Positions 26,951-40,116 of a stretch of DNA of 64,000 nt are shown here, in pieces. Location: positions 5,734 through 69,733 of the forward strand of contig CALRBH010000002.1 in the NCBI GenBank assembly GCA_943354165.1. Reading direction: 5' to 3'. A model generated the notes under the pieces. It was not told the DNA's origin. It ran no database searches and was given only the letters and a program-made list of their open reading frames with translations. Every line of letters starts with the position of its first letter. The stretch's first letter is position 1. The position numbers and the translations under genes were made by a program. The stretch comes from Candidatus Uhrbacteria bacterium RIFOXYB12_FULL_58_10 (GTDB taxonomy: Bacteria; Patescibacteriota; Patescibacteriia; UBA9934; GWF2-40-263).

Positions 26951-26970
26951 TCAACTTGACGATAAGAGAA

Positions 26971-27016
26971 GCCGCTGAAACACTACTGCTAACGCAGAAA
27001 TTTCAGCGGTTTTTCA
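26971..27016 (+). terminator. intrinsic terminator (gccgctgaaa ... tttcagcggttttt)
   Basis: Long hairpin plus T-run 20 nt after the pnp stop. Confidence 0.6.
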
Positions 27017-27021
27017 TTTGC

Positions 27022-28296
27022 ATGGAGCGATTATCGATCCCAATGGGAAGCAGAAACAATCCTCAGAACCGCACCCGAGTTGTTTGGGTATGGGGAATAG
27101 GACTTCTTATTGTGATTGGCTGGGCGGCAGGTCACAAAATCAATACCAGCGACCATGTAACGAATACCGTTCCTGAAGATACCGCGATAGTGGCGCAATT
27201 TTCCGTAAAACGTACAGGATGGGATCAAATCAGTAAGGCACTCGATGGAGTGACGCTGATTAGCAATCGTCCGCTTTCCATTCATGAACTTCCATGGTTC
27301 GTAGAGGGTGAATTCGCCATATTCATAAGTTCGCGCGGACACCGGACCATCTCTGTTCATTCAAGCGACAAGCGATTACCGAAATCTCTGCTTGAAAGCC
27401 GAGGTATTGTCGTTCAAAAGACAGGGGACTCCTCCTATCTACTCTCCGATCGTCGCGAAGGCACGACGGGATATTCCATGCCTAATACTAGCCTAATTTC
27501 CGCACTTCACTGGCCGCCAACACGCCTCGGAACCATTGCAATAGATGGCGTGAGCCGCGCGGGAATTATTCGTATGCTTCCAACAGGGAACATGGAATGG
27601 CGGTTTCCCCATGGATCGTCGTTCAAAAAGACGACATTACCTCCTCCACCAAAGGGAACGCTTATTTTTTTGTCCACGCCGGTGTGGACGCAGGCTCCGG
27701 CCCCACTTTTTTCCTCAACAGAGAGCATTCTTTCTTCCCTAGCCACATGGGACGAGCTCACGACAGAAACCAAACAGGCGGAATATGCTGTGTCACGTTC
27801 GGATGAAATGGACATTTTTCTATTCAAGACAAAGGCAAATATTGAACACCCAGAAGAACGAATTAAACTTTTACGACTCGCTTCTGCTGTCCGATCCCCT
27901 AAGACACGAGCCTTTCAGCTTCCAGATGGAGAAACTGTCCGAGAACTTCTTACGGACCCTTCGGCTGTGACCGTAGAATCCGTAAGCATCGCCGGCGCCC
28001 AAGCGGAACGTGTCACCTCTGGAGATCGGGATGGGGAACTCCTCTCCTTAGAGCGGGAAGGGAACTGGTACTACACCAACAGCCGAGCTTGGCTTGAAGC
28101 CGCGGTTTCCGAAACGCACCCGACCGACGGGTTATGCAAAGGCTCACTCATGGGGATGGACACGGCGGTCCTTTCTTCTGCGACCGGCTCTCCACATTCC
28201 TACTGGCCCTACCCAATCACGGATCTTACAAGCACCTACTCCGCCATCGGACTCCATCAGTCCTTCACCGCCACGATTTTCACCTTTTGCAGGTAA
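27022..28296 (+). CDS. membrane-anchored hypothetical protein
   Basis: Start at MERLSIP after the pnp terminator. Single N-terminal TM (VVWVWGIGLLIVIGWAA). No domain recognised. Confidence 0.45.
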   Translation: MERLSIPMGSRNNPQNRTRVVWVWGIGLLIVIGWAAGHKINTSDHVTNTVPEDTAIVAQFSVKRTGWDQISKALDGVTLISNRPLSIHELPWFVEGEFAIFISSRGHRTISVHSSDKRLPKSLLESRGIVVQKTGDSSYLLSDRREGTTGYSMPNTSLISALHWPPTRLGTIAIDGVSRAGIIRMLPTGNMEWRFPHGSSFKKTTLPPPPKGTLIFLSTPVWTQAPAPLFSSTESILSSLATWDELTTETKQAEYAVSRSDEMDIFLFKTKANIEHPEERIKLLRLASAVRSPKTRAFQLPDGETVRELLTDPSAVTVESVSIAGAQAERVTSGDRDGELLSLEREGNWYYTNSRAWLEAAVSETHPTDGLCKGSLMGMDTAVLSSATGSPHSYWPYPITDLTSTYSAIGLHQSFTATIFTFCR

Positions 28297-28338
28297 CACC
28301 TGCCCTGAGCGGAGATCGCAACCGGAGTCGAAGGGTTA

Positions 28339-28425
28339 TGTGGATAACATGTGTGGAAAAGACACAATGTGTGGATAAGTTGTGGGTCACAACAAGAGTT
28401 CGTCAGAGGAAATATTGTATCCACA
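28339..28425. promoter_or_regulatory. DnaA-box cluster (2 perfect TGTGGATAA, 1 GTATCCACA, 2 weaker)
   Basis: Box positions: 28339-47 tgtggataa, 28352-60 tgtggaaaa, 28370-78 tgtggataa, 28381-89 tgtgggtca, 28417-25 gtatccaca. The cluster lies roughly 9 kb from dnaA. Confidence 0.55.
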
Positions 28426-28461
28426 GTGTAAATGCGCTCAATACAAAGCTATAACGACCGT

Positions 28462-28490
28462 TTGACACATTCATTTATTCAAGGTATTAT
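28462..28490 (+). promoter_or_regulatory. consensus sigma70 promoter TTGACA-N17-TATTAT
   Basis: -35 at 28462-67, 17-nt spacer, -10 at 28485-90. Both hexamers are consensus. Confidence 0.6.
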
Positions 28491-28496
28491 ATTGAG

Positions 28497-28880
28497 GTAC
28501 CTGCAACGTTCTTTCCAACACCTCCCAGACTGTGGGAGATTTCCCGAACGACCCAACCACTAAGAGCGTCCCCACTGCTCATAGTGCTCGTCCGGGAGAC
28601 ATCCCACTTCTCTACTGTTCTCTCTCGGTCAGTCCCACCATCAGCGGTTCTCAATTTCGAGAAGCAACCGGGCACGACCAAAGACTGGTAGAGAAGTACG
28701 AGTCACTTCTGAAACGGTTACCGTGAACGTTGATATATGGACGTCGAGTCGCGTGGCGCTTTACCCTGCGCCTTGAGACCCGACGTCTGTCCACCAATCT
28801 CACACCAACCCACTCAGAGGCTCATCTTACGAAAGGCCTCACCCATCTAAAACACTTTTAGGGGTCCGAGGCCTTTTTCT
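28497..28880 (+). ncRNA. candidate structured RNA, ~380 nt (unidentified; alternatively a long cis-regulatory leader of the downstream dksA-like gene)
   Basis: Bounded by a consensus promoter and a strong extended terminator hairpin (28822-28872 plus T-run). No convincing ORF. Many internal helices, for example GGACGTCG...CGACGTCT. It did not fit my mental models of RNase P, tmRNA or SRP RNA. Confidence 0.4.
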
Positions 28881-28895
28881 ATTTCAAAATACCTA

Positions 28896-29375
28896 ATGGC
28901 TCCATATTCACTCCTTCAGGTAAGGGTGGAGAAATCGATCGTCGATGGATTGCCCGAAATCGATCAGGATGATATCGTGTATCTATTGATATATTCCGCT
29001 ATGGATCAAGCATTTTCTGACAAGATGAAGTCCCTTTTGGTTGAAGAAAAGGGCCGACTGGAGCACGAACTCTCCCAATTTGCGCACCGGAACACTCGGG
29101 CAACCTCCACCACGTACGATACGGATTTCCCAAACATTGGTGATAAAGAGGATGAAAACGCCTCTGAGGTTGCACAATTTTCTGACAATTTGTCGTTAGA
29201 AGATGAGCTGGTAAAGCAATTGAGGGATGTGGAATCCGCCATGCGCCAGTTTGAAAAAGGCGTCTATGGCATCTGCAAGTACTGCAAATTGCCGATTGAT
29301 GAACGCCGTCTTATCGCCCGACCAACTTCCAGCTCCTGTATCCAGTGCAAAAAGACGCTTACTCAAGAAATGTAG
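28896..29375 (+). CDS. DksA/TraR-family C4 zinc-finger protein
   Basis: C-terminal CxxC-x17-CxxC (GICKYCKLPIDERRLIARPTSSSCIQCKK) and an acidic coiled-coil N-terminal region. Confidence 0.7.
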   Translation: MAPYSLLQVRVEKSIVDGLPEIDQDDIVYLLIYSAMDQAFSDKMKSLLVEEKGRLEHELSQFAHRNTRATSTTYDTDFPNIGDKEDENASEVAQFSDNLSLEDELVKQLRDVESAMRQFEKGVYGICKYCKLPIDERRLIARPTSSSCIQCKKTLTQEM

Positions 29376-36541: not shown

Positions 36542-36883
36542 CTACTTCAACAGCTTAGCTTTCCTCAATAATCCCTCGGTTTGTTTAGAAACGACCTCAA
36601 ACGTAGCACGTCCAATGATCAGCTTCGGTAAGAACACGGCATCAAACCCAGGCTTAAAATGAGGCGAAAGTTTTTCAAGAACGGCACGGACCCGGCGCTT
36701 AATGCGATTACGCTCCACAGCAGACTTGGACACCTTGGTTCCCACGACCACCGTCACCCGACTCTCCGGAAGGCTGGTGAGCCGGTACTTCATGCCGATA
36801 TGAGCATCAAAGACGCTCTTGCCTTTCGCAAAGAGCGTCTTAATATCCTTATCGTTTTTGAGCCTGGATGGGGTTGGAAGCAT
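36542..36883 (-). CDS. rnpA: RNase P protein component
   Basis: 113 aa with conserved RNR basic motif (AVERNRIKRRVRAV). Position between rpmH and yidD. Confidence 0.85.
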   Translation of the reverse strand: MLPTPSRLKNDKDIKTLFAKGKSVFDAHIGMKYRLTSLPESRVTVVVGTKVSKSAVERNRIKRRVRAVLEKLSPHFKPGFDAVFLPKLIIGRATFEVVSKQTEGLLRKAKLLK

Positions 36884-36944
36884 ACCGGGATCCTTCGCTC
36901 CGACATCACGTCGGGGCTCAGGATAACTCCACCTGTCGGTGGAG

Positions 36945-37097
36945 TTACTTAAGCTTCTTTTTCTGTACGCTTACACGAGCGCGGCCACCTGCGCGGCGGC
37001 TGGCAAGCACTTTGCGTCCAGACTTCGTGCGGGAACGTACGCGAAATCCGTGTACCTTGGCCGCTCGGGCTTTCTTTGGTTGAAATGTTCGTTTCAT
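36945..37097 (-). CDS. rpmH: 50S ribosomal protein L34
   Basis: Not in the ORF track (50 aa). Translates to [50 protein letters not shown], the canonical L34. Confidence 0.85.
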
Positions 37098-37132
37098 AGA
37101 TAGATTAATCGAAGTCAGAGAAGGCTACCATG

Positions 37133-37193
37133 TTATCCACAGATTATCAACTGTCTTATCCTCCCTGTGCACACTTGCGGGGTTGTGGATATC
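37133..37193. promoter_or_regulatory. DnaA boxes in the rpmH-dnaA intergenic region
   Basis: Perfect ttatccaca at 37133-41. atatccaca (tgtggatat) at 37185-93. Weaker ttatcaac/ttatcctc in between. Confidence 0.55.
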
Positions 37194-37228
37194 TCATCTA
37201 CACTGCCTGTTGTTAAGCCTCGTCGCTG

Positions 37229-38674
37229 ATGAATTCCGACCATAAAATGGTCGGTGTACTCGTTATGACTACTCACGAGTTGTGGCAAGCCGTGTTGGGA
37301 GAACTTGAATTGTCTTTAAGCAAGGCAAATTTCACAACTTGGTTTAAGAGTACCTTCGTGGCAGAGATCGGAGCAAGTGATGCGTGCATTGGCGTCCCAA
37401 ACCTTTTCACCAAAGCCTGGCTTGAGAAGAAATATCACAAGGAAATCCTGCAGAGCCTGCAAAACCTTACAGACGAACGCGTTCGGACCGTTTCCTATCG
37501 CGTAGAAGCGCGACCGACAGGTGTACAGATCATAGATTCCATTGATCCCGCTCCACTCACAAGCACGATCACCACTCATCAGGAAGCAAACGAGATTCCA
37601 CCGTTCGCTACGGAGTCCGTGCGTATACCTTCCTTTGAGAGCGGAGAATTCACTTTGAATGGCAAGTACACATTCTCCAGCTTTATCGTTGGAAAGCAGA
37701 ATGAACTCGCCCACGCCGCGGCTCAGGCCGTTTCTGGGAACCCAGGTGGCGTCTACAACCCGCTCTTCCTCTATGGTGGGGTAGGACTCGGAAAAACCCA
37801 CCTACTTCAGGCCGTTGGAAACGAACTCCTTCGAAAGAATCCGACGATCAAAGTGCTTTATGTTACCAGTGAACGTTTCACTAACGATTATATTCAAGCT
37901 GTACGCAGCGGAAAAACTCAGGATTTCAAGAACCGTTACCGCAACATCGATCTCCTTCTTGTAGACGACATTCAATTCATCGCAGGGAAGGAAAGCACCC
38001 AAGAAGAGTTCTTCCACACCTTCAACCACTTATATCAAAGCAATAAACAGATTGTTCTCACCTCCGATCGCCCTCCAAAAGCGATCCAGCAAGTGGAACA
38101 TCGCCTCGTTTCCCGTTTCGAATGCGGAATGCTCGCCGACGTAGGAAATCCAGATTACGAAACGCGCGTCGCTATCCTTGAGTCCAAGTGTCGCGACAAA
38201 AACTATCCGCTCGACCGCGACGTCATGCACCACCTCGCCACCATCGTGCAAAGCAACGTTCGAGAACTGGAAGGAGCCCTCAATAAAATCATTGCCTTCC
38301 ACCAATTCAAAAATACGCTTCCTTCGCTCGAGAGTGTGAAGCCGATTCTCTCCAGCTTCAATACGCAGTCACAGAAAAAATCCGTCACCCCAAAAATTCT
38401 CATCAGTACAGTAGCTGTCTATTTCGACGTAGCGATCGAAGACCTGCTTGGAAAGAGTCGCGAGAAGCGTCTCGCTTTTCCGCGACAGATTGTGATGTAT
38501 CTCATGCGAGAGGAACTGAAGTCGAGCTATCCTTCAATCGGGAATGAACTCGGCGGACGTGATCACACCACAGCCATGCACGCGTACGAAAAGATTTGTA
38601 ACTGTCTTTCCCAAGATGAGAAGCTTCAGCACGATATGGAACTCATCAAGCAACGCTTATACACAGCGGCATAG
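37229..38674 (+). CDS. dnaA: chromosomal replication initiator DnaA
   Basis: AAA+ Walker A LFLYGGVGLGKTHLL and C-terminal DNA-binding domain (TAMHAYEKI). Start may be the internal Met at 37265. Confidence 0.95.
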   Translation: MNSDHKMVGVLVMTTHELWQAVLGELELSLSKANFTTWFKSTFVAEIGASDACIGVPNLFTKAWLEKKYHKEILQSLQNLTDERVRTVSYRVEARPTGVQIIDSIDPAPLTSTITTHQEANEIPPFATESVRIPSFESGEFTLNGKYTFSSFIVGKQNELAHAAAQAVSGNPGGVYNPLFLYGGVGLGKTHLLQAVGNELLRKNPTIKVLYVTSERFTNDYIQAVRSGKTQDFKNRYRNIDLLLVDDIQFIAGKESTQEEFFHTFNHLYQSNKQIVLTSDRPPKAIQQVEHRLVSRFECGMLADVGNPDYETRVAILESKCRDKNYPLDRDVMHHLATIVQSNVRELEGALNKIIAFHQFKNTLPSLESVKPILSSFNTQSQKKSVTPKILISTVAVYFDVAIEDLLGKSREKRLAFPRQIVMYLMREELKSSYPSIGNELGGRDHTTAMHAYEKICNCLSQDEKLQHDMELIKQRLYTAA

Positions 38675-38991
38675 AAACATCACACAGGATATTCACAGTT
38701 GTGCGTTGATTGAGCACAATTTGTCCACATGTTATTCCTTGTCTAAAAGGTGTGGAGAAGTGGAATATATCTGGGTATAAGACTCCTCAAATCATGTGGA
38801 TAGAAATAGGGAATAATTCATCCAACCATTCCATCCCCAGTCCACACACCTTTCCCCCACGGGTCTTTCCACATGAACACAAGAATTTTTCCCGTGAATT
38901 CATTCACTGAAATCGACTTGTCCACGCCATCCACACCCCTTATTGTTACTACTAGTATATCTACATATAAACTCTTACTAATAAGCCACCT
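38675..38991. promoter_or_regulatory. candidate oriC (dnaA-dnaN intergenic): degenerate DnaA boxes plus AT-rich unwinding stretch
   Basis: ttgtccaca at 38721-29, tgtggatag, tgtggagaa, and several xTCCACA variants. A 50-nt AT-rich tract (ttattgttactactagtatatctacatataaactcttactaataa) lies immediately before dnaN. Confidence 0.45.
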
Positions 38992-40116
38992 ATGAAACTG
39001 TCGTGTACGAGAGAAAATCTGTTCCAAGGGTTGGCGATCGCAAGTCACCTCACTTCCAAGAACGTAAACCTTCCTGTTCTTCAGAACATCCTCATCCAAG
39101 CGGAGGGAGGTACAATTCGTTTCACGACAACGAATCTTGAAATTGCCGTTCGCTGCATCGTCCGAGGAAAAGTCGATGAGCCGGGTGAAGTGACGGTTCC
39201 ATCCAAATTGTTTTACGACTATGTTTCTCTCCTTCCGAACGAAACGGTTTCCGTAGATGGAAACGCAACATCGCTCTCCGTAGTGTGTGGTGGATATAAA
39301 ACCAAAATGAACGGACTGTCCGCTTCCGAGTTTCCGCTCGTTCCAGACGTTCAAGCCGCCGTCTCTGTTTCCATTCCCGTTCCAGCCCTTCGTGAAGCGC
39401 TCTCCCGAGTTCTCTTCGCCGTCTCAACCAACGAATCCCGCCCAGAGCTCACAGGCGTCTACATGCGGTTCGAAAAGACAGAGAACAGCTACAACCTCAT
39501 CTTGGCTTCCACGGACTCGTACAGGCTCTCTGAATCCGTTATAGCGCTTGAAAAAGGGTTGGAAGACAAGCAGGTCATTATCCCTGCAAGGACACTTGGG
39601 GAAGTGAACCGCATTCTTTCGGTATTTAAAGATGATGTAGAGGCCGCCGCTCACATCGAGATGCGTTTATCCGACAATCAAGCGGTATTTCGCTTCGGAA
39701 CCGTCGAGTTGGTTTCAAGAATTATCGAAGGAAACTACCCAGATTACCGTCAGATCATCCCAAAAACCTTCGAAACCACATCGGTTATCGACCGTGACGA
39801 CTTCGTAAAGTCGGTGAAGACCGCCGCGTTGTTTTCAAAGAATGGTTTGTTCGACGTAACCCTTTCATTCGCTAAGGATGGCCTTACGGTTCGCTCCGTC
39901 GACGCCCAGCGCGGGGAAAACACCGCGATATGTCCTGCAAATGTCACAGGGAAGGACAATACCGTGACCGTAAACTATCGATATCTCCTCGATGGATTGT
40001 CCGCCTGTGCCAGCGACAACGTCATTTTCGAAATGATCGATGCAAGCAATCCGTGTGTTGTACGTCCATCGGACGCAAAAGGCTATTTATACATTGTGAT
40101 GCCGATTAAGCAGTAG
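38992..40116 (+). CDS. dnaN: DNA polymerase III beta sliding clamp
   Basis: 374 aa with three-domain clamp architecture. Position directly after dnaA. Confidence 0.9.
   Translation: MKLSCTRENLFQGLAIASHLTSKNVNLPVLQNILIQAEGGTIRFTTTNLEIAVRCIVRGKVDEPGEVTVPSKLFYDYVSLLPNETVSVDGNATSLSVVCGGYKTKMNGLSASEFPLVPDVQAAVSVSIPVPALREALSRVLFAVSTNESRPELTGVYMRFEKTENSYNLILASTDSYRLSESVIALEKGLEDKQVIIPARTLGEVNRILSVFKDDVEAAAHIEMRLSDNQAVFRFGTVELVSRIIEGNYPDYRQIIPKTFETTSVIDRDDFVKSVKTAALFSKNGLFDVTLSFAKDGLTVRSVDAQRGENTAICPANVTGKDNTVTVNYRYLLDGLSACASDNVIFEMIDASNPCVVRPSDAKGYLYIVMPIKQ

Follow-up and report, generated by a model that had tools for sequence, protein, structure and literature searches.

We examined a 64-kb stretch of DNA from a Candidatus Uhrbacteria genome (Patescibacteria, or candidate phyla radiation [CPR]), referred to below as the window. 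A non-coding region at 28297-29000 lies between the gene for a 446-amino-acid (446-aa) hypothetical protein and a gene for a DksA/TraR-type zinc-finger protein, here called dksA-like or dksA. The original prediction, drawn from the letters of the window and its open reading frames (ORFs), had placed an unassigned structured transcript in this region. We find there a structured RNA whose helices are maintained by compensatory substitutions, and we lean toward reading the element as a previously undescribed stand-alone non-coding RNA gene. The features of the region are as follows.

28339 to 28347, + strand: DnaA box 1, TGTGGATAA, a perfect match to the consensus, conserved in homologs.
28352 to 28360, + strand: DnaA-box-like site, TGTGGAAAA, one mismatch, not generally conserved in homologs.
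28370 to 28378, + strand: DnaA box 2, TGTGGATAA, a perfect match, 31 bp from box 1.
28417 to 28425, - strand: DnaA-box-like site, TGTGGATAC, one mismatch, a third, inverted box in a subset of homologs.
28462 to 28490, + strand: RNA promoter, with -35 TTGACA (28462-28467), a 17-nucleotide (17-nt) spacer, and -10 TATTAT (28485-28490).
28497 to 28885, + strand: RNA gene, about 389 nt, with both ends predicted.
28832 to 28885, + strand: extended intrinsic terminator, a two-tier hairpin (28832-28876) followed by a U-tract.
28950 to 28978, + strand: predicted promoter of the dksA-like gene, with -35 TTGCCC (28950-28955) and an extended -10, TGATATCGT (28970-28978).

Eighty loci were fetched from species-representative genomes by way of an alignment of 22 homologs of the DksA-like protein, whose named relatives belong to Candidatus Uhrbacteria and Patescibacteria; single loci are cited below by L numbers. 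In iterated nhmmer searches, most of these loci proved to share a conserved segment of about 550 nt upstream of dksA. The conserved segment corresponds to window positions 28338-28890 and takes in the DnaA boxes, the promoter, the transcribed region, and the terminator.

The promoter, which had been expected at 28462-28490, proved to be close to the sigma-70 consensus, matching it at 11 of 12 positions. Across 44 aligned homologs, TTGA of the -35 and three -10 positions are invariant, and conservation reaches 90% or more at C12 and at two other positions of the -10. The 5′ end of the transcript is placed by the -10 element, together with a GTA that recurs at this point in most homologs, and the 3′ end by the U-tract; the predicted RNA would be about 390 nt long in the window and 330 to 420 nt in relatives. 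The terminator had been located about correctly at 28822-28880: it consists of the hairpin AAAGGCCUCACCC...GGGGUCCGAGGCCUUU (28832-28876, -20.8 kcal/mol), followed by UUUUUCUAUUUC up to 28885, and a hairpin followed by a T-run also closes the element in those homologs that were folded. Conservation of both promoter and terminator is what a stand-alone non-coding RNA gene would be expected to show. Folding of 28497-28885 gave a minimum free energy of -141.2 kcal/mol, with a z score of -6.45 relative to dinucleotide shuffles. The earlier statement that no credible ORF lies between promoter and terminator also holds, since the window contains only short, unconserved ORFs there, of at most 64 aa. 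A conserved coding frame, which had been named as evidence to the contrary, was looked for in the 44 homologs and none was found; their longest ORFs fall on differing strands and in differing frames, and are about as long as those of shuffled sequences (69 versus 59 aa).

The 44 RNA copies were aligned with MAFFT, and a consensus structure was derived with RNAalifold. It comprises six helices and 52 pairs, of which 37 show compensatory changes. Standard pairing occurs in 93.6% of cells, compared with 40 to 52% when the 3′ partners are slid by one to three columns; cells altered on both sides number 309, compared with 61 to 91 in the slid controls, and none of 500 shuffles reached any of five covariation measures. 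The comparison of homologous loci that had been put forward as a check thus gave strong support. We conclude that the element is a structured RNA, with a secondary structure maintained by compensatory substitutions. Its domains in the window are given below.

28506 to 28516, + strand: conserved 5′ single-stranded motif, ACGUUCUUUCC, family consensus YCGUUCUUU.
28534 to 28605, + strand: P1 domain (helices 1 and 2), outer stem GGG.AUUUCCC / GGGAGA..CCC, with strands 28534-28545 and 28594-28605.
28564 to 28580, + strand: P1b hairpin, GAGCG-UCCCCAC-UGCUC, with a conserved C-rich loop at 28569-28575.
28610 to 28620, + strand: 5′ strand of P2 (helix 3), CUCUACUGUUC.
28627 to 28679, + strand: P3 hairpin (helix 5), GGUC.GUCC / GGGC..GACC, with a variable tip.
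28683 to 28693, + strand: 3′ strand of P2 (helix 3), GACUGGUAGAG.
28694 to 28738, + strand: variable segment between P2 and P4, forming a local hairpin in many homologs, with a conserved GAGU near its 5′ end.
28739 to 28788, + strand: P4 hairpin (helix 6), GGACGUCGAGUC...GACCCGACGUCU, scoring 46 bits on the + strand.

The 5′ tail of the RNA carries the exposed conserved motif GUUCUUUC; its G, C, and TT are invariant in the 44-copy alignment, and the motif is kept in the most diverged copies, L061 and L064. No covarying partner for this motif was found in the alignment, and a pairing with the purine-rich stretch that follows P2 was dropped, as it was inconsistent across sequences by eye. The outer stem of P1 encloses a variable hairpin and the hairpin P1b. 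In a separate alignment of the P1 domain the P1b stem covaries, with six pairs that are each changed on both sides in 2 to 12 sequences, and its loop, CCCCAC, is at least 90% conserved. A search for an intramolecular partner of the loop, which would make a pseudoknot, gave no consistent candidate.

P2 is a long-range helix of 11 pairs, 7 of them with compensatory change, which encloses the P2a stem-loop and P3; the junction nucleotides around P2, P2a, and P3 are highly conserved. Two domain covariance models were built, R1 from the P2-P3 core and R2 from P4. P2a precedes P3 in most homologs (loop AAAACAAAAACAAAA) and is absent from the window copy, which is atypical in this respect and scores only 37.9 bits with R1. 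Four other family members have GGGGG in place of the P2a loop, which is therefore either dispensable or lineage specific. The A-rich P2a loop is also absent from L002, the closest relative of the window copy (window 28620-28627, compared with columns 15-70 of alignment A3).

P4 shows compensatory change at 16 of its 19 pairs. The complementarities that the original prediction had quoted, GGACGTCG/CGACGTCT and GGCGC/GCGCC, turn out to be the base and the tip of P4, and are conserved with heavy covariation. In all 42 aligned hairpins an invariant G-A-G (28747-28749) stands opposite C-C-C (28779-28781), which places an A.C mismatch between two G-C pairs; the apical part of the hairpin is variable in sequence. 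The mismatch is a candidate recognition site. In the minimum-free-energy fold of the window copy, P4 is extended into a long, 6S-like rod; this extension is not general, as the 5′ flank forms a hairpin of its own in many homologs.

The strand from which the RNA is read can be judged from the same alignment. G.U pairs are frequent, and one U.G pair is invariant; on the opposite strand these would read A.C. At every locus matched on both strands, R2 scores higher on the + strand than on the - strand. Together these observations indicate that the RNA is read from the + strand, as the promoter and the U-tract imply. An RNA from the minus strand folds equally well when taken alone, but was set aside because the promoter, the U-tract, the G.U pairs, and the covariance model scores all favor the + strand.

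The DnaA boxes, which lie directly upstream of the promoter, had been overlooked by the original prediction. A pair of perfect TGTGGATAA boxes at a spacing of 31 to 32 bp is present in 44 of 69 loci, 90 to 150 bp upstream of the -35 element, and in the most distant loci the DnaA-box segment is conserved better than the RNA body. The conserved pair suggests that DnaA may control transcription of the RNA from its promoter. A further sequence, TTGAACACA, is conserved in many loci about 25 nt after DnaA box 2 (L051, L052, L057, and others) and is absent from the window copy; in about 13 of 44 loci an inverted copy of it, TGTGTTCAA, lies within the spacer of the RNA promoter. The sequence may represent a weak DnaA box, or else a different regulator may bind there.

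The boxes also raise the question of whether the functional element is DNA. According to that explanation, a DnaA-box cluster would titrate or reactivate DnaA, in the manner of datA or DARS, or would serve as a secondary origin element, and it would be the act of transcription that matters and not the RNA product. The two perfect boxes at a fixed spacing are the most conserved intergenic part of the locus, and they lie about 9 kb from dnaA and dnaN, where the origin of the chromosome is probably situated. The genes concerned occupy the following positions.

36542 to 36883, - strand: rnpA.
37229 to 38674: dnaA.
38992 to 40116: dnaN.

On either side of dnaA there are DnaA-box clusters (37133-37192 and 38657-38803), and the cumulative GC skew reaches its minimum near 38 to 40 kb, so that oriC probably lies at dnaA-dnaN (window 36542-40116). 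A replication origin at the RNA locus was rejected on account of the skew minimum and these further clusters, and the same two observations speak against a DNA element there. In addition, the two perfect boxes stand upstream of the promoter and not in the transcribed part, and selection on the RNA is evident from compensatory changes that keep its helices intact, some of them involving G.U pairs possible on one strand only. Because of this covariation the explanation is largely refuted for the transcribed part, and we regard it as very improbable for the element as a whole; the boxes could still act at the chromosome level as well.

The family was then delimited with the two covariance models. 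R1 finds one copy in each of 59 loci and R2 adds 9, giving at least 68 of the 80 loci; in three of the remaining 12 the upstream sequence available was too short. By eye, L061 and L064 contain diverged copies with the same 5′ motif and terminator, and a P4-like GGACGUCGAG motif was seen in L061. Among the carriers are SG8_24 (L075) and a genome of Magasanikbacteria (L066). When metagenome contigs were scanned with an RNA motif, 38 matches were obtained, of which 31 have the synteny of the window; 14 of these 31 were searched with R1, and all 14 were confirmed. The other seven matches were not recognized by R1 and are therefore taken to be chance matches. A scan of viral contigs gave nothing, and a contig identical to that of the window is present in a Logan assembly. 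We conclude that the RNA family is clade-wide in Candidatus Uhrbacteria and neighboring Patescibacteria (SG8_24 and Magasanikbacteria), with one copy per locus.

Comparison with known RNA families gave no assignment. Searched with Rfam 15 at the gathering score, the whole window yielded tRNAs only. At E<=10, the 4227 models gave nothing meaningful in 28250-28950, the sole resemblance being that of the terminator hairpin to ctRNA_p42d (18.5 bits, compared with a cutoff of 50 bits). There was no match at the gathering score in 15 homologous loci, and only chance-level matches at E<=10 in a typical family member, L024. ARAGORN found no transfer-messenger RNA (tmRNA) in the window, and the RNA has no Rfam tmRNA match, no tRNA-like domain, and no tag ORF. 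No description of this RNA was found in the literature searched. The family is absent from Rfam 15, and is new in sequence and structure. The transcript was thus rightly called unassigned; the Rfam check proposed for it was negative for the window copy, for L024, and for the 15 loci, and its unlikeness to RNase P RNA, tmRNA, and signal recognition particle (SRP) RNA, at first judged by eye, agrees with the Rfam and ARAGORN negatives. It had likewise been observed correctly that rnpA is present and that rnpB and ssrA are not: Rfam and ARAGORN found neither of the latter two in the 64 kb.

These searches bear on a second alternative, that the RNA is a highly diverged form of a known housekeeping RNA which the Rfam models miss. 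A 6S-like RNA that binds RNA polymerase would be the most plausible candidate, and RNase P RNA, SRP RNA, and tmRNA would be others. The gene has its own strong promoter and terminator and is single copy and clade-wide in reduced genomes; its length resembles that of RNase P RNA, and a 6S-like role would fit a position beside the RNA-polymerase-binding factor DksA. The window contains rnpA, yet none of rnpB, ssrS, ffs, and ssrA was found in its 64 kb, an absence that says little about the rest of the genome. Each candidate meets with difficulties, beginning with the lack of a match to any of the 4227 models. For RNase P RNA, there is no Rfam match in the window copy or L024 at E<=10, or in the 15 loci at the gathering score, and no conserved block of the 44-copy alignment resembles CR-I or CR-V by eye. 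The two ends of the RNA do not pair with each other, unlike those that form P1 of RNase P RNA: the 5′ tail is single stranded, and the 3′ end is the terminator hairpin. The SRP models of Rfam match neither the window copy nor L024 nor the 15 loci, and a tmRNA would be expected to show the tRNA-like domain and tag ORF that are missing here. For 6S RNA there is no Rfam match, and the fold consists of local domains and one long-range helix and not of a single rod with a central bubble. Taken together, we consider a diverged housekeeping RNA unlikely.

Several well-studied RNAs nevertheless offer points of comparison. 6S RNA is about 180 to 200 nt long and folds into a single extended, irregular helix, the central bubble of which imitates an open promoter. 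The present RNA resembles 6S RNA (ssrS) in being a clade-conserved, stand-alone, single-copy gene of housekeeping type with its own sigma-70 promoter and terminator, and here has as its neighbor a gene for an RNA-polymerase-binding factor of the DksA family; unlike 6S RNA, it is about twice as long and has several separate domains (P1, P2 enclosing P2a and P3, P4, and the terminator). OLE, the raiA motif, and ROOL/GOLLD are orphan large structured bacterial RNAs, known from Rfam and the work of the Breaker laboratory. They share with the present RNA a length of several hundred nucleotides, a multidomain architecture, strong covariation, restriction to particular clades, and a function that cannot be deduced from sequence. 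The present RNA differs from them in having no Rfam similarity, in occurring in Patescibacteria, and in the conserved DnaA boxes uniquely placed upstream; it is linked neither to prophages or tRNAs, as are ROOL and GOLLD, nor to oap genes, as is OLE. RsaE/RoxS, base-pairing small RNAs of Gram-positive bacteria with C-rich loops, are about 100 nt long and contain several C-rich motifs, with little conserved structure otherwise. Common to them and the present RNA are a Rho-independent terminator and a hairpin loop in which a conserved C-rich motif is left unpaired; the present RNA has a single C-rich loop set within a much larger conserved fold.

The relation of the RNA to the downstream gene depends on where that gene starts. 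Gene callers give the dksA-like ORF as 28896-29375 (159 aa), whereas nearly all of the 120 homologs listed are about 124 aa long and cover 78% of it. From these lengths, the ORF is probably 35 codons too long, and the real start is most likely ATG 29001 and not 28896. With a start at 29001, the gap between terminator and dksA would be about 116 nt. The original prediction had the terminator ending 16 nt before the dksA-like start, a distance counted to ATG 28896, and the argument that the terminator abuts dksA therefore rested on a probably incorrect start codon. In Magasanikbacteria, terminator and dksA are about 180 nt apart. This gap is where the predicted dksA promoter lies, in the window as TTGCCC, 17 nt, and TATCGT preceded by TG, 22 nt before ATG 29001. 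Of 51 loci, 42 have a TGnTAnnnT motif downstream of the terminator and ahead of the dksA ATG, where shuffles would lead one to expect 13%; the median distance to the ATG is 27 nt. A separate predicted dksA promoter downstream of the terminator makes a stand-alone transcript more probable than a leader.

Our best guess is that the RNA is a trans-acting structured RNA with an exposed CCCCAC loop and an exposed 5′ tail. In the mechanism we propose, DnaA bound at the two consensus boxes 90 to 150 bp upstream would tune transcription, such that the level of the RNA would track the status of replication initiation. The RNA would be made from its own strong sigma-70 promoter and would end at its own extended intrinsic terminator, with dksA started from the separate extended -10 promoter. 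Once released, it would act in trans through the exposed conserved elements, either as a scaffold for protein binding or by pairing with G-rich target sequences. For pairing of the latter kind CcnA provides a precedent: this 182-nt non-coding RNA of Caulobacter crescentus has a CCCC hairpin loop that pairs with GGGG in the 5′ untranslated regions of ctrA and gcrA (PMC8959179). The two RNAs share a CCCC stretch displayed in a hairpin loop, a gene near the origin region, and a link between their transcription and a master regulator of replication and the cell cycle (through CtrA boxes in the case of CcnA; here through DnaA boxes, with control predicted) (PMC8959179). CcnA, in contrast, is an alphaproteobacterial RNA of 182 nt encoded within the origin, and it is not homologous to the present RNA in either sequence or structure.

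A number of observations weigh against a stand-alone RNA that acts in trans. A search for targets of the 5′ tail and the C-rich loop gave nothing convincing among the 56 ORF starts of the window, nor at the starts of dksA, lspA, comM, and the 446-aa hypothetical protein gene across loci; there was a weak enrichment of GGGG at comM starts only (26 of 68 loci). Both ends of the transcript are predicted from sequence signals. The DnaA boxes could instead serve neighboring genes or the titration of DnaA at the chromosome level. Above all, the RNA always adjoins dksA, directly upstream and on the same strand, in 31 of 31 syntenic metagenome matches and in all genome loci. This linkage persists where the upstream genes differ (L064 and L066), and no copy outside the dksA context was found in the genome loci or metagenome contigs scanned. 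An RNA that is never found apart from dksA would suit a role in cis equally well. Finally, in about 29% of 42 loci, compared with 5% expected, the pairing possible between the linker and the terminator 5′ arm surpasses that of shuffled linkers (p < 0.05), which hints at a regulated terminator.

These last points are those expected if the element were a cis-acting leader of dksA-lspA-comM, similar to an attenuator or riboswitch, in which the folded domains would sense a ligand, a protein, or an RNA and so decide whether the terminator forms; the strong upstream promoter would then read into dksA only under some conditions. The highly conserved nucleotides of the P2/P2a/P3 junction are aptamer-like, and the pairing between linker and terminator 5′ arm is strong in L040 (10 bp, z = -8.5), in L036, and in the window (GAGGC/GCCUC, z = -3.5). 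Like riboswitch and T-box leaders, the element lies upstream of a gene on the same strand and has an intrinsic terminator, conserved junction nucleotides, and, in some loci, a possible anti-terminator. Against this, the anti-terminator signal is weak over the 42 loci as a whole (mean z = -0.87, median -0.44), absent from most of them, and not general, and a variable linker separates the terminator from the conserved domains. No riboswitch or T-box model of Rfam matches even at E<=10, and no T-box-like sequence or known aptamer was seen, the former having been looked for in the alignment. A length of 330 to 420 nt is far above that of typical leaders, and in 42 of 51 loci a predicted extended -10 of dksA follows the terminator, at a place where a leader of these classes would have no promoter for the downstream gene. 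We regard a leader as possible but doubtful. The original prediction had left the choice between an independent non-coding RNA and a leader of dksA-lspA-comM undecided; with a promoter and terminator of its own and a separate predicted promoter for dksA, the independent RNA is now favored, to the extent of a little better than an even chance, and the leader is weakened.

Patescibacteria, with their tiny genomes, account for a large part of bacterial diversity, and Uhrbacteria are ultrasmall bacteria of groundwater. Their RNA biology beyond rRNA and tRNA is essentially uncharacterized, and no paper on it was found in the literature searched. A multidomain RNA of about 400 nt that reduced genomes have retained in the same place throughout a whole class is probably not dispensable. 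It also provides a concrete target that can be aligned, and the two domain covariance models allow searches of metatranscriptomes as well as biochemical probing. With its conserved pair of DnaA boxes, the RNA would join a very small number of candidate non-coding RNAs under the control of the replication initiator, and would offer a testable tie of the cell cycle to RNA-based regulation in organisms for which growth in isolation is not yet possible. For now, the RNA is best filed as a new form of stand-alone bacterial non-coding RNA with an unusual, conserved link to DnaA boxes. A more far-reaching idea, which we put forward tentatively, is that of an essential housekeeping ribonucleoprotein RNA or ribozyme specific to this branch of the CPR, the synthesis of which would be coupled to replication initiation through DnaA. 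If this were true, the RNA would represent a new functional class comparable in rank to 6S or OLE RNA and retained in genomes of about 1 Mb from which most regulators have been lost, and together with the neighboring DksA-like factor it might link replication status to the activity of RNA polymerase or the ribosome.

The conserved gene order around the element is NYN-domain protein, PNPase, hypothetical protein, the RNA element, dksA-like, lspA, comM, and, in reverse orientation, an M23 peptidase. The upstream hypothetical protein is encoded as follows.

26956 to 28296: 446-aa hypothetical protein; membrane anchor at the N terminus; no Pfam domain.

A relative of this protein, detected by tblastn at 22 to 40% identity, is encoded directly upstream of the RNA gene in most, though not all, Uhrbacteria loci. 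Elsewhere in the window, ARAGORN called six tRNAs and Rfam five; tRNA-Ala(cgc) at 2311-2386 on the - strand was called by ARAGORN and was not reported by the Rfam tRNA model at the gathering score. In L020, an insertion of about 300 nt (approximately 2190-2500) lies between the RNA terminator and dksA. It is bounded by the terminal inverted repeats gatctcttttaaaattcg ... cgaattttaaaagagatc, and looks like a miniature inverted-repeat element.

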